From assembly GCA_037127915.1 (NCBI GenBank), contig JBAXXL010000020.1, positions 1,822-65,821 on the forward strand: a stretch of 64,000 nt of DNA, given 5' to 3'. Both the position numbers and the translations under genes were made by a program. Of the stretch, positions 14,243 through 17,513 are shown piece by piece. Within the stretch, counting starts at the first letter, position 1, and each line of letters starts with the position of its first letter. The stretch comes from a bacterium (GTDB lineage: Bacteria > Bacteroidota > Ignavibacteria > Kapaibacteriales > UBA2268). The notes below the pieces were generated by a model. The model was not told the DNA's origin, did not search any database, and worked only from the letters and a program-made list of their open reading frames with translations.

Positions 14243-15367
14243 ATGAAAAATGAAGGAAATAGAGCCTTAACCGGAATGCTATCAGATGTGATATCTGACG
14301 GTAGGAGAATTCTTGACCGCGGTTATTGCGGGCACGAGCATCTGTTGGAACACAATATCATCAACATGAATGGAAGAATTTATGACCCAACCGTTGGACA
14401 ATTCATGCAAGCAGACAATTACGTCCAAACACCAGAAGATTATATCGGCTACAACCGATATTCATATTGCAGACATAACCCGTTTAAGTATGTTGATCCG
14501 AGTGGAGAGCAATATATAGCCGGTTCTGGTGGTGGCGGTGTTATGGCCGCTATGGGAGCATATTACTTAGCCATGGAAGCACAGCGATCCACTGCAATTG
14601 GTGAGGCACTTGGCGAGGCTATGAGAAATTGGAACCCTAATGCCAGAATAGAAGAAGCAGATGCCGCACGAAACAGAGCTGAACGAAGTGGCGTCAGTGC
14701 CGGTAGTTCTGGTGGTGGCGGCGCAACACCACCTGCCGAAAACAAAGACACAAAAGCGGATGGGGATACGGAAACAAATGGAGTGAGTGGTGAACAGGAA
14801 ACTGGAACAGATGGAACAGGAAAAGTGCAAGGACCTGCAGAAAAAGGGAAAGTGGCACCGTGGGAAATGTTACCTCCCGATGAAATGCAAGAATTAAAAG
14901 ATGGACCAGCACGTGAAACAGAATTTGATGGTAATGAGGAAGTTCAAATTGGAGATGCTACCCCAGTGAATAGAGATAATAAGTACGCTTTTTGGGATAA
15001 TCTCTTTGCGTATAATTGTCATTCTTATGCTTGGCATAATGGGAATGGTGATCTCAGTGATTCACATAATAGTTTTTGGTATATGAGATGGGATGGTTAT
15101 CCATTGGATGATGCTCGAGAAATGGCGAGACCATTACAGGGTAGTGAAGGTGTACAAGTAGGTGATAGAATTATTTATTTTGATGGTGAAGGTAATCCAC
15201 TTCACTCCGCAATCGTATCCGGAGTGAATGAATACGGTTTAGCAACAAGGGTGACAAGTAAATGGGGATCCGATCCTTTATATAATCACCACCCACTTGA
15301 CCCTGATGTTGTCCCAGGTTATGGAACATATTTGAAATATTATAGAATGAATAATGGAGGTAGATAA
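14243..15367 (+). CDS. Orphan Rhs C-terminal toxin cassette: the end of the RHS repeat-associated core (…GRIYDPTVGQF…YCRHNPFKYVDPSGE), a Gly/acidic linker, and a papain-like (CHAP/NlpC-P60-like) C-terminal toxin domain
   Basis: The N-terminus reads RGYCGHEHLLEHNIINMNGRIYDPTVGQFMQADN...YNRYSYCRHNPFKYVDPSGE and matches the conserved 3' end of Rhs/YD core domains (DPxG demarcation). The C-terminal region carries Cys (YNCHSYAW) and His (GNPLHSAIVSG), with GDRIIYFDG spaced as in CHAP/NlpC-P60 amidases. No upstream Rhs body is present, and the ORF starts mid-core. Confidence 0.7.
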   Translation: MKNEGNRALTGMLSDVISDGRRILDRGYCGHEHLLEHNIINMNGRIYDPTVGQFMQADNYVQTPEDYIGYNRYSYCRHNPFKYVDPSGEQYIAGSGGGGVMAAMGAYYLAMEAQRSTAIGEALGEAMRNWNPNARIEEADAARNRAERSGVSAGSSGGGGATPPAENKDTKADGDTETNGVSGEQETGTDGTGKVQGPAEKGKVAPWEMLPPDEMQELKDGPARETEFDGNEEVQIGDATPVNRDNKYAFWDNLFAYNCHSYAWHNGNGDLSDSHNSFWYMRWDGYPLDDAREMARPLQGSEGVQVGDRIIYFDGEGNPLHSAIVSGVNEYGLATRVTSKWGSDPLYNHHPLDPDVVPGYGTYLKYYRMNNGGR

Positions 15368-15993
15368 TGAAACTAAATATGATTTTTATTGTTCTTTTGG
15401 TGATTTGTATTTTTAATACCAGCTGTACACAAAACAGATTTACCAATAAAGATACTGAATATAAGCAATTGATTGACAGTTTACGTTGTGCTTGGACACT
15501 CTCTATATGTAATAAAACTGGGGTTGGGATTAAATGTAGATATGAACGCTTAGACCAATGGAACAAGAGTATAGAAGAATATAAAAATGACAGTACTGCA
15601 TTAAAAAAAGCAATTAAGAGTTTCTATGCCAAAGACTCCACTTTAATAAAATACTTAAAAGGTTTCAAGAAAGTAAAAAGAAATTTCCCTAATTTTGAAC
15701 ATTTTAGCAACAGAAATTTTTTACTTGAATCTGATAATCTACCATTATTTAACATAATTGATTTTTACCATCAAAAAAATAATGCATATTTGGATTTGAT
15801 CCTTAACTATTATTTAAACACAGACCACACAAGTATTAAATTGCTTCTTAATGTTCACAAGTATATGCTTACTGAAGATTTATATAACAGAATCGAAAAA
15901 ATCTTCGAGAAATATGGTTACGCAGATAAAGAAAAAATTCGCGTAGCAATATTGGAAGATTTTGGTAGTTTGATAGCACTTGAAGGAATGTAA
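15367..15993 (+). CDS. Putative immunity lipoprotein, paralogue 1 of 3 (208 aa)
   Basis: Start codon overlaps the toxin stop (TAATG). Signal peptide with a lipobox-like IFNTSC. Unknown Cys-containing family. Tandem near-identical paralogues follow. Confidence 0.6.
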   Translation: MKLNMIFIVLLVICIFNTSCTQNRFTNKDTEYKQLIDSLRCAWTLSICNKTGVGIKCRYERLDQWNKSIEEYKNDSTALKKAIKSFYAKDSTLIKYLKGFKKVKRNFPNFEHFSNRNFLLESDNLPLFNIIDFYHQKNNAYLDLILNYYLNTDHTSIKLLLNVHKYMLTEDLYNRIEKIFEKYGYADKEKIRVAILEDFGSLIALEGM

Positions 15994-16072
15994 TAAAAAA
16001 AGTAGCCGCTGAATATATGTAGGCGGTTACTTTTATTATATTAAATTTTATAATATAATGCAATTAAATGAA

Positions 16073-16100
16073 CATATTACATATTACATATTACATATTA
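16073..16100. repeat. Heptanucleotide microsatellite (catatta)x4 immediately upstream of immunity paralogue 2
   Basis: catattacatattacatattacatatta. Only one unit is present at the equivalent site upstream of paralogue 3 (16825-16831). Confidence 0.6.
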
Positions 16101-16124
16101 CAGAATGAATAATGGAGGTAGATA

Positions 16125-16751
16125 ATGAAAAAAGATATAATTTATCTTGTTATTTTGGTGATTTGTATATTTAATACAAGCTGTACCCAAAACCGATATA
16201 CCAATAAAGACACAGAATATAAGCAATTGATTGACAGTTTACGATGTGCTTGGACCCTCTCTATCTGTCACAAAGTCAGTGCAGGAACGGAATGCAGATA
16301 TGAAGGCTTGGATATGTGGAATAAGAGTATGGAAGTATATATAAATGACAGCACAGCATTAAAAAAGGCAATTAAGAGTTTCTATGCCAATGACTCTAAT
16401 TTGATAAAATACTTGAAAAGTTTCAAAAAAGTCAAGAAGCGTATTCCAAATTTTGAACATTTTAGTAACAGAAATTTTTTACTTGAATCTGATAATCTAC
16501 CATTATTTAATATAATTGATTTTTACCATCAAAAAAATAATGCATATTTGGATTTAATCCTTAACTATTATTTAAACACAGACCACACAAACATTAAATT
16601 GCTTCTTAATGTTCACAAGTATATGCTTACTGAAGATTTATATAACAGAATCGAAAAAATCTTCGAGAAATATGGTTACGCAGATAAAGAAAAAATTCGC
16701 GTAGCAATATTGGAAGATTTTGGTAGTTTGATAGCACTTGAAGGGATGTAA
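16125..16751 (+). CDS. Putative immunity lipoprotein, paralogue 2 (208 aa)
   Basis: Preceded by a remnant of the toxin 3' end (agaatgaataatggaggtagataATG, encoding RMNNGGR*). About 90% identical to paralogue 1, with differences clustered in the CxKxxxGxxCRYExLDxWNKS segment. Followed by the hairpin gtagccgc..gcggctac and a T-tract. Confidence 0.6.
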   Translation: MKKDIIYLVILVICIFNTSCTQNRYTNKDTEYKQLIDSLRCAWTLSICHKVSAGTECRYEGLDMWNKSMEVYINDSTALKKAIKSFYANDSNLIKYLKSFKKVKKRIPNFEHFSNRNFLLESDNLPLFNIIDFYHQKNNAYLDLILNYYLNTDHTNIKLLLNVHKYMLTEDLYNRIEKIFEKYGYADKEKIRVAILEDFGSLIALEGM

Positions 16752-16859
16752 AAAACAGTAGCCGCTGAATATATGTATGCGGCTACTTTTATTTTATAAA
16801 ATCTTATTATATTATGCAATTATATGAACATATTATAGAATGAATAATGGAGGTAGATA

Positions 16860-17513
16860 ATGAAAATAAATATGATTTTTCTTGTTCTTATGTTGCTTTG
16901 TGGTTTTATTACAAGTTGTTCTCAAAATAATTATGCCATTAAAAATCCTGAGTATAAGCAATTGATTGACACCTTACGTTATGCTTACACTCTGAATATA
17001 TGTTATAAATCACATAGAAGTAAAGAGGAATCCACCATTTGTGATTATGAAAATTTAAATAGATGGAATAAAAGTATCGATGAATATAGAAATGATAGTA
17101 TAGCATTAAAAAATGCAATAAAGAGTTTCTATTCCAAGGACTCAAATTTGATAAAATACTTGAAAAGTTTCAAAAAAGTCAAGAAGCGTATTCCAAATTT
17201 TGATTATTTCAGCAACATCAATCTAATATTTTATAGCGGGGATATTAATGTAATTATCGATTTATCTAAATTTTATTCAAAAAAAAATAATGCATATTTG
17301 GATTTAATACTAAACTATTACGTAAACACAGATCAAACAAGAATCAAGTTGCTTCTAAATTGTTATGTTATAAAAGATAGCAGGATATCTGCTGAAGATT
17401 TATACGGGCGATTAGATAAAATCTTTGAAAAATATGGCTACGAAGATAAAGAAAAAATTCGCGTAGCAATATTGGAAGATTTTGGCTCCTGTATAACTCT
17501 TGATGGAATGTAA
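16860..17513 (+). CDS. Putative immunity lipoprotein, paralogue 3 (217 aa, more divergent)
   Basis: Same RMNNGGR* remnant upstream. Lipobox FITSC. Shares exact DNA stretches with paralogue 2 (ttgataaaatacttgaaaagtttcaaaaaagtcaagaagcgtattccaaattttga). Confidence 0.6.
   Translation: MKINMIFLVLMLLCGFITSCSQNNYAIKNPEYKQLIDTLRYAYTLNICYKSHRSKEESTICDYENLNRWNKSIDEYRNDSIALKNAIKSFYSKDSNLIKYLKSFKKVKKRIPNFDYFSNINLIFYSGDINVIIDLSKFYSKKNNAYLDLILNYYVNTDQTRIKLLLNCYVIKDSRISAEDLYGRLDKIFEKYGYEDKEKIRVAILEDFGSCITLDGM

Follow-up and report, generated by a model that had tools for sequence, protein, structure and literature searches.

How do tandem copies of one gene come to be almost identical over one half of their length and to differ by clustered amino-acid replacements in the other? 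The question is raised by three genes in a 64,000-nucleotide stretch of contig JBAXXL010000020.1 (assembly GCA_037127915.1), which we refer to as the window and to which all coordinates belong. The original prediction, made from the letters alone, described the three genes as an array of immunity-like lipoproteins with a localised hypervariable patch, and invoked both gene conversion and diversifying selection. We found the three tandem open reading frames (ORFs) exactly where they had been placed, on the same strand and encoding 208, 208 and 217 amino acids, with start-to-start distances of 758 bp and then 735 bp. Our analysis makes it probable that they belong to an accessory orphan Rhs toxin-immunity cassette of a Kapaibacterium-like member of the Bacteroidota, with a homogeneous polyimmunity array that has become mosaic by recombination. 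The array and its parts, all on the plus strand, are:

15367..15993, +, putative immunity paralogue 1 (copy 1), presumed cognate, 208 aa, predicted signal peptide, NTSC with Cys20; TAATG overlap with the toxin ORF
15511..15585, +, patch A, copy 1 codons 49-73; the copy 2 equivalent is 16269-16343
15691..15993, +, 3' half of copy 1, homogenised block, 98% identical to 16449-16751 of copy 2
15994..16124, +, spacer 1, with a terminator-like hairpin and U-run (~15999-16040), an (ATATTAC)4 microsatellite and a toxin 3' remnant; from folding, alignment and tblastn
16125..16751, +, putative immunity paralogue 2 (copy 2), 208 aa, mosaic by copy comparison
16398..16456, +, 59-bp gene-conversion tract, copy 2 side, the longest exact match
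16752..16859, +, spacer 2, ~85% match to spacer 1; terminator-like hairpin, and a toxin 3' remnant (16789-16860) that places GGAGG ahead of copy 3
16860..17513, +, putative immunity paralogue 3 (copy 3), 217 aa, lipobox ITSC, ~62% amino-acid identity to copies 1 and 2
17145..17203, +, 59-bp exact tract, copy 3 side, identical to 16398-16456

Recombination between the tandem copies

We compared copies 1 and 2 along their entire length. They differ at 66 of 627 nucleotides (89.5% identity), and the substitutions are far from uniformly spread, with 60 of the 66 located in the 5' half. By position in the gene, the differences are distributed as follows:

nt 7-28, 7 differences, signal-peptide N-region
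nt 45-141, 10 differences, 9 of them synonymous
nt 145-219, 24 differences, patch A
nt 220-264, 3 differences
nt 267-324, 16 differences, patch B, a copy-3-like tract
nt 325-627, 6 differences, 3' half

The view that the two copies are near-identical except for one cluster thus holds in part: patch A contains 24 of the differences and its cluster of replacements is real, but 16 further differences fall in the copy-3-like tract, and the main break lies at nt 324. Similarly, the exact match reported between copies 2 and 3 exists and is embedded in otherwise diverged genes, but it measures 59 bp (16398-16456 and 17145-17203) rather than 56 bp at 16404-16460 and 17150-17205. Among 187 sites that are informative for the three copies, nt 275-324 hold an uninterrupted run of 14 consecutive sites where copy 2 equals copy 3 and copy 1 differs. 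None of 200,000 permutations reached a run of this length, the longest permuted run being 8. Over codons 89-108, the proportion of synonymous differences (pS) is 0.09 for copies 2 and 3, compared with 0.82 for copies 1 and 2. As the identity in the tract reaches silent sites, constraint on the protein does not explain it. These findings confirm, with statistical support, the proposed gene conversion between copies 2 and 3. Copies 1 and 3 diverge by ~24% in the tract, which corresponds to their overall level, and copies 1 and 2 differ by only 2-6% in its flanks. The most parsimonious direction of the 59-bp conversion is thus from copy 3 to copy 2, and we regard this direction as likely.

A second exchange had been overlooked in the original prediction. 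A maximum chi-square scan of copies 1 and 2 places a breakpoint at nt 324 (value 45.5, reached in 0 of 5000 permutations). Codons that specify the same amino acid carry a synonymous difference in 24 of 81 cases in the 5' half and in 4 of 97 cases in the 3' half (Fisher p = 2.6e-6). The 3' 303 nt of the two copies contain just 6 differences (98% identity), and pS amounts to 0.09 there versus ~0.4-0.5 in the 5' half. Directly downstream of this block, in the spacers, identity returns to ~85%. Together, the low 3' divergence, the breakpoint and the more divergent spacers indicate that copies 1 and 2 were recently homogenised over their 3' ~300 bp and that their 5' halves are older. Copy 2 is thereby a three-part mosaic: its 5' 270 nt are copy-1-like but older, the following 59 bp equal copy 3, and its 3' 295 nt are nearly identical to copy 1.

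Tandem immunity paralogues of the type VII secretion system, esaG and tipC, have been found to recombine via blocks of conserved sequence (Garrett et al. 2022, PMC9484751). As in these systems, the genes described here are non-identical tandem paralogues that exchange segments by homologous recombination and thereby become mosaic. They differ in secretion system, phylum and protein family, and our case consists of two tracts in one three-gene array from a single assembly rather than of population data. It provides a small but statistically supported case of intra-array recombination shaping immunity genes in the little-studied Kapaibacteria.

Variable patch and selection

We next analyzed the segment that had been singled out as hypervariable. 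The quoted peptide corresponds exactly to codons 48-74 of copies 1 and 2, and the 75 nt of patch A hold the 24 differences noted above. Amino-acid changes affect 11 of the 25 codons 49-73 and only 1 of 43 flanking codons (p = 2.7e-5). Synonymous divergence in the patch is comparable to that of the flanks, with 5 of 13 and 10 of 41 same-amino-acid codons differing, respectively (p = 0.48). Purifying selection is strong on the neighbouring codons 11-48 and 74-88, where the proportion of non-synonymous differences (pN) is 0.01 and 0.00, respectively. The clustering of replacements in codons 49-73 is genuine.

Clustering does not by itself identify its cause. Estimated with the Nei-Gojobori method (NG86), patch A has a pN of 0.23 and a pS of 0.77, a ratio of ~0.3. 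In the eight-codon loop formed by codons 49-56, between the conserved Cys48 and Cys57, pN is 0.43 and pS 0.91, a ratio of ~0.47. Across the six close family members, no sliding window of 15 codons reaches a pN/pS of 1; the maximum is 0.83 and is located outside patch A, in a test whose power is low given six sequences and saturated synonymous sites. Family-wide ratios are 0.69-0.83 for codons 112-135, 0.75-0.79 for the signal-peptide N-terminus and 0.63 for the loop. These data therefore do not demonstrate the claimed diversifying selection on an immunity surface, and the clustering fits a weakly constrained loop as well as it fits positive selection; the loop is either weakly constrained or adaptively variable.

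It is conceivable that patch A forms a toxin-contacting surface under positive diversifying selection, such that copies 1 and 2 would neutralise different toxin variants. The concentration of replacements on a background of flank-like synonymous divergence would be expected in this case, the patch segment varies across the family and includes a 4-codon indel there, and orphan immunity genes of Bacteroidales have been reported to accumulate non-synonymous changes at the interface predicted for effector and immunity protein (Azhieh et al. 2025, bioRxiv 10.1101/2025.05.03.651265). The substitution ratios given above, none of which reaches 1, argue against it. In addition, codons 112-135, which form the most variable region of the family (pN 0.44), and the indel region at codons 161-171 are identical in copies 1 and 2, and if these regions formed the interface, the two copies would share one specificity. 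Only two close toxin variants are known, and no usable model places the patch relative to an interface. We thus consider diversifying selection possible but doubtful. The identity of codons 112-135 and 161-171 between copies 1 and 2 follows from their location inside the homogenised block. Homogenisation hides these other variable regions, and the single localised patch seen originally is in part its effect.

Relative to copy 3 and every other known member, copies 1 and 2 lack four codons of the loop, a deletion common to both. This speaks for divergence of the patch on the spot or for its acquisition from an unsampled donor that had the same deletion. A short gene conversion that pasted patch A into copy 1 or copy 2 from a more distant, unsampled family member would account for the NG86 pS of 0.77, which is nominally above the 0.36-0.42 of the flanks, and for the roughly equal distance between the three copies in this segment, where 10 of 37 informative sites differ three ways. 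Short-tract conversion is, moreover, demonstrably active in the array (16398-16456). Against this stand the lack of a significant enrichment of synonymous differences in same-amino-acid codons and the need for a donor that has the deletion peculiar to copies 1 and 2. The search for additional copies that the original prediction had called for returned none, either in the window or among the called proteins of the metagenome-assembled genome (MAG), so that a candidate donor is missing in both. Such a paste appears improbable to us.

A diversity-generating retroelement was also considered as a source of variation and rejected: the window holds no further copy of the patch that could serve as template repeat, and weak RVT_3 matches (E ~0.03-0.05) fall on the signal peptide and represent noise.

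A bolder proposal, to which we assign a low but not negligible probability, is that the Cys48-Cys57 loop could be the specificity determinant of an undescribed periplasmic lipoprotein immunity family directed against DUF7689/NlpC-P60-like Rhs toxins, and that conversions of ~60 bp among the tandem copies could act by shuffling cassettes. If this were true, new specificities could arise faster than by point mutation, and the array would act as a small combinatorial immunity repertoire.

Orphan Rhs toxin and putative immunity proteins

The assignment of the array as immunity genes depends on the gene directly upstream, which we characterized in terms of domain content and predicted fold. The relevant features are:

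14243..15367, +, orphan Rhs C-terminal toxin ORF, 374 aa; TIGR03696 match, NCBI product name and PDB profile search
14903..15364, +, predicted toxin domain, DUF7689-like, predicted papain-like NlpC/P60/CHAP fold; motifs, AlphaFold2 model and Foldseek

The ORF starts with a short non-Rhs leader (MKNEGNRALTGMLSDVISDG). Next come the last ~65 residues of an Rhs core (...NRYSYCRHNPFKYVDPSGE), this core end lying at 14318-14506, and then a linker rich in Gly, Ala and Thr that leads to the toxin domain. TIGR03696 (Rhs_assc_core) matches residues 26-88 with E = 2.1e-13 and 50.6 bits, compared with a cut-off of 32.5, NCBI names the product RHS repeat-associated core domain protein, and a PDB profile search returned the core ends of Rhs, Tc (TcC) and teneurin proteins. 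No YD repeats were found in the ORF and no other Rhs-like ORF in the window. An ORF that has only the end of the core, behind a non-Rhs leader, represents an orphan Rhs C-terminal module and not a full Rhs protein. In orphan modules of this type, the end of the core (PxxxxDPxGL) is followed by a variable toxin, with an immunity gene immediately downstream. Our locus has the same layout, with the core end ...NPFKYVDPSGE, a variable toxin and a downstream gene overlapping the toxin stop, and it is likewise low in GC and accessory. In contrast to such modules, it has no full-length rhs or secretion-system genes in the window, its conserved leader (MKNEGN...) is non-Rhs and recurs in other orphan ORFs of related metagenomic loci, and its host is a Kapaibacterium-like member of the Bacteroidota and not a proteobacterium.

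An alignment of 15 toxin relatives revealed that the motifs AYNCHSYAW and HSAIV are invariant and HHP is near-invariant in the last ~150 residues. Among these relatives, DUF7689 (PF24738) is recognised in 4 of 15 (best E = 1.5e-6), CHAP weakly in 3 of 15 (best E = 2.3e-4) and Amidase_6 in 1, and the window toxin itself has no Pfam NLPC_P60 or CHAP match. By sequence comparison, it is a divergent relative of DUF7689 and not a formal member. An AlphaFold2 model of the toxin domain (predicted local distance difference test score, pLDDT, 77.6; predicted template modelling score, pTM, 0.75) places Cys39 at the start of a helix comprising residues 39-45 and His101 in a strand comprising residues 99-108; both residues are invariant in the 15 sequences. 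The best PDB matches of the model in Foldseek are NlpC/P60 enzymes, among them MepS/Spr, LytE and CwlO (probability 0.94-1.0). From fold and motifs, the domain is most likely a papain-like cell-wall hydrolase, a peptidoglycan amidase or endopeptidase, that would act in the periplasm of the target cell. A toxin acting there would explain why the downstream proteins are exported. This arrangement is reminiscent of the Tae-Tai amidase pairs of type VI secretion systems, where a papain-like Cys/His hydrolase is likewise matched by an immunity protein with an export signal. Unlike the amidases of these pairs, the window toxin belongs neither to a Tae family nor to Pfam NLPC_P60, and its nearest Pfam entry, DUF7689, is a domain of unknown function.

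The leader of the toxin ORF recurs elsewhere. A conserved short leader, MKNE[GR]N....G.LSD..S.G, together with conserved upstream DNA, is present at 14243-14305 and 17632-17661 of the window, at 926-990 of metagenomic locus L001, at 4422-4480 of metagenomic locus L005 and at the N-terminus of protein P0019. The ORFs that begin with it are otherwise unrelated: two different orphan Rhs toxins, one toxin remnant and, in L005, an ORF of 466 aa with a body dissimilar to the toxin. The shared leader may be a common promoter/start module or a recombination joint for cassettes.

Several lines of context support the original view of the three genes as an immunity-like lipoprotein array. First, the stop codon of the toxin ORF overlaps the ATG of copy 1 by one base (TAATG), which argues for translational coupling. 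Second, L005 contains the closest toxin homologue (P0008, with a toxin domain that is 60% identical), and downstream of it, with stop and start again overlapping, lies a 227-aa protein related to the immunity family (37%). Third, orphan copies of the family are kept beside toxin remnants in four loci. In L001 and L002, the toxin has shrunk to a 32-aa ORF that fuses its N- and C-terminus (MKNERN...GRYFLMNNGGK*) in front of an intact downstream gene, and L003 and L004 retain ~65 nt of the toxin 3' end, L004 with an Rhs core end upstream in addition. Fourth, all six close members, the three window proteins among them, start with a predicted signal peptide that has a Lys-containing n-region and a hydrophobic stretch, and residues T18-S19-C20 are invariant in them; the lipobox-like signal reads ITSC, a typical form, in copy 3 and NTSC in copies 1 and 2. 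Judged from gene order and toxin remnants, the genes probably form an immunity array of exported, lipid-anchored proteins. The pairing did not extend to a more distant toxin relative (L039), the downstream ORF of which encodes an unrelated exported protein of 163 aa; toxin-immunity pairing is thus limited to the closer toxin subfamily.

The genes themselves are intact. Amino-acid identity among the three paralogues ranges from 62 to 88%, and the ratio of non-synonymous to synonymous substitution rates (dN/dS) is 0.15-0.34 among them. Copy 3 compared with copies 1 and 2 gives values of 0.29-0.34, indicating purifying selection on an intact gene. The family is very small. Six proteins were found among 5.8 billion clusters, three of which are those of the window, and an exhaustive profile search of 1.84 billion representatives yielded nine matches with E <= 1e-3. 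Scans of GTDB genomes and of JGI metagenomes with the family profile added no further members, and a degenerate DNA pattern, AAAATMTTYGARAAATWYGGYTAYG, matched 27 stretches, none of which encodes a relative as judged by tblastn. The locus links DUF7689 to a likely role as cell-wall-hydrolase toxin and pairs it with a tiny unannotated immunity family, of ~6 close and ~9 distant members among billions of proteins. The cysteine pattern of the family co-varies in the family alignment (window 15487-15540 and 16245-16300): copies 1 and 2 have Cys41 and are devoid of the extra loop Cys and of the C-terminal G[SA]CI Cys found in most other members. Copy 3 and the proteins of L001, L003 and L004 have an even number of cysteines in their mature part, consistent with disulfides in an oxidising compartment.

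The spacers of the array resemble one another and the toxin gene. They are homologous, with ~85% identity, and in front of both copy 2 and copy 3 stands ...YYRMNNGGR*, the final codons of the toxin, containing a GGAGG ribosome-binding site. In spacer 1, the remnant occupies 16078-16125 by alignment (16078-16122 by tblastn) and provides this site for copy 2. The (ATATTAC)4 microsatellite of spacer 1 (window 16055-16100), present as one unit in spacer 2, derives from the ...YY codons of the toxin 3' remnant. Hairpins followed by a U-run are predicted after copy 1 (-18.8 kcal/mol, z = -5.5) and copy 2 (-15.7 kcal/mol, z = -4.4) and resemble intrinsic terminators; a third hairpin, after copy 3 (-26.1 kcal/mol, z = -4.1), has a different sequence and no U-run. 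A scan for sigma-70 promoters was uninformative, with 19 found and 20 expected.

Taken together, we propose the following scenario. The toxin ORF at 14243-15367 would combine an Rhs core end with a C-terminal toxin domain that hydrolyses the cell wall in the target periplasm, and copy 1 would be its cognate immunity gene, translationally coupled to it. Copies 2 and 3 would be extra orphan immunity genes, each retaining the last ~10-20 toxin codons with its GGAGG ribosome-binding site and having its own terminator hairpin. The mosaic was generated by homologous recombination between the tandem copies, both exchanges having statistical support: the 59-bp tract passed between copies 3 and 2, probably from 3 to 2, and copies 1 and 2 were homogenised over their 3' ~300 bp. 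This leaves the older 5' half of copies 1 and 2 exposed, with a synonymous divergence of ~0.4-0.5, and strongly constrained except in the signal-peptide N-region and in codons 49-73.

Homogeneous polyimmunity loci have been defined previously, with RHS-borne Tox-NlpC/P60 among the listed toxins, and lipoprotein immunity proteins were exceptional in that survey (Zhang et al. 2012, PMC3482391). Our locus conforms to this type in that a polymorphic toxin is accompanied by a tandem set of paralogues from a single immunity family, which outnumber it. It departs from the loci of that survey in having only three copies, in a family that is not among the listed Imm families and in members that are exported and apparently lipoproteins. 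Like the rAID orphan arrays of Bacteroidales (Azhieh et al. 2025), it comes from the Bacteroidota and keeps diverged orphan immunity genes together with toxin-gene remnants; unlike them, it has no recombinase gene nearby, is attached to an apparently intact toxin and contains a family unrelated to SUKH. Earlier work has described polyimmunity loci, orphan immunity genes accompanied by remnants of a toxin, and the exchange of sequence by recombination among tandem immunity paralogues, and the general view of toxin-immunity evolution is unchanged by our findings.

A number of points weigh against the proposed cassette. On the toxin side, the Pfam DUF7689 score stays below the gathering threshold of 22.6 bits, the entire ORF scoring 17.5 bits and the toxin domain by itself 19.7 bits, and the fold match is only moderate (TM 0.43-0.56, E ~3e-3). 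On the immunity side, the Asn at position -3 of the lipobox in copies 1 and 2 is atypical and more distant relatives do not have the Cys; the proteins have no significant match in Pfam, NCBIfam, PADLOC or PDB sequence searches; and their AlphaFold2 model, built on a 6-sequence alignment (pLDDT 40, pTM 0.27), is too poor to map the patch or to search for folds. The immunity role is drawn from sequence context, binding and neutralisation of the toxin being predicted from gene order and toxin remnants, and the direction of the 59-bp conversion is likewise inferred. Finally, the exact array is found in one assembly only, as the same contig deposited twice (NCBI and ENA).

The last point bears on whether the mosaic could be an assembly artefact, in which tandem ~750-bp repeats were chimerically joined via shared k-mers or between co-existing strains. 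The exact repeats of 59 bp and 152 bp are places where graph assemblers can switch paths, and an independent Logan assembly of another run has an identical PBP2 flank and stops at the cassette edge. Yet each of the three intact ORFs has its own spacer, ribosome-binding site and terminator, and the distinct spacers, at 85% identity and with a 4-copy versus a 1-copy microsatellite, anchor the order of the copies. The divergence is coherent, being mostly synonymous in constrained parts with a dN/dS of 0.15-0.34. A path switch would also require the 59-bp tract to be present in at least two gene copies already, so that the shared tract would still be real. We therefore judge an artefact very unlikely.

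We also asked if the genes could belong to a different family of exported accessory lipoproteins that just happens to lie next to an Rhs fragment. The lack of any database annotation and of detectable homology to known immunity families would be in line with this. However, the position downstream of the toxin is conserved in two diverged loci, four loci retain the gene along with toxin remnants, copy 1 shows translational coupling to the toxin, and the predicted compartment suits a toxin directed at the cell wall. We give this explanation hardly any weight and retain the toxin-immunity cassette as the preferred one.

Neighbouring repeats and genomic context

The cassette differs in composition from its surroundings. 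The GC content of the array is 27-30%, compared with 37-47% in the flanks. The PBP2 encoded next to the cassette shares 90% identity with its counterpart in a Candidatus Kapaibacterium MAG (Bacteroidota; L008), which has no cassette at the equivalent position. Low GC and the absence of the cassette beside a related PBP2 together indicate an accessory locus. The Logan contig (L007, 6 kb, an independent assembly) is identical to the window through the PBP2 flank and ends at ~17632-17661. The other neighbours encode cargo proteins of the type IX secretion system (T9SS) and housekeeping functions, and the window holds neither a recombinase nor an integron-like context, a full-length rhs or a secretion system. 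The features that border the cassette are:

13690..14242, no strand, hairpin-rich interspersed repeat upstream of the cassette; copies at ~8750-9400 and 17630-17815
17632..17661, +, degenerate second toxin leader ATGCCATCAGATGAAACATCTGACGGCAGG, 83% identity to 14276-14305 (repeat family D10)
17700..17815, no strand, interspersed hairpin repeat, downstream copy, separating the PBP2 gene from the cassette; from repeat comparison

Hairpin-rich interspersed repeats fill the intergenic regions 8750-9400, 13690-14210 and 17630-17815 and thus bracket the cassette. They share the palindrome GGACAGGTCGYGACCTGTCC, ACCAATATTGCATCCCTAANGGGAT, and GCGCTTTTGGCTATT..ACATTTTGTTTAATTTA, and have no Rfam match. 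The upstream region contains the palindrome GGACAGGTCGTGACCTGTCC (13844-13863) and ACCAATATTGCATCCCTAAAGGGAT (14123-14147). It also has, at 14160-14205, a conserved sequence close to the leader, which recurs upstream of the toxin-remnant ORF in L001. The repeat element adjoining PBP2 is present in the related Kapaibacterium genome L008 as well. The leader copy at 17632-17661 either is what remains of another cassette start or belongs to the flanking repeat.

Two genes on the minus strand, 8249-8758 (169 aa, T9SS-tailed) and 11116-13677 (853 aa, with an Ig-like domain), have nearly identical upstream regions (8750-8900 versus 13690-13830), which suggests duplicated promoter regions. A second orphan Rhs module was located in a related assembly (ERZ4201038; L006 10001-11493). 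It encodes 352 aa with a different, Gly-rich C-terminal domain, is followed by a candidate immunity gene of 143 aa, and adjoins a paralogous pair of T9SS/Ig-domain genes. P0019 is recorded also on the 98,999-bp source contig of the window, outside the window itself, and this second module indicates that the genome carries several orphan Rhs cassettes. Further away, 1128-8057 and 23752-29441 encode large Fib_succ_major/TIG-domain proteins in clusters and, in addition, a subtilase-like protein of 1628 aa, with C-terminal sorting domains of the T9SS; the N-terminus of this 1628-aa ORF is clearly paralogous to the 265-aa ORF at 23752-24549.

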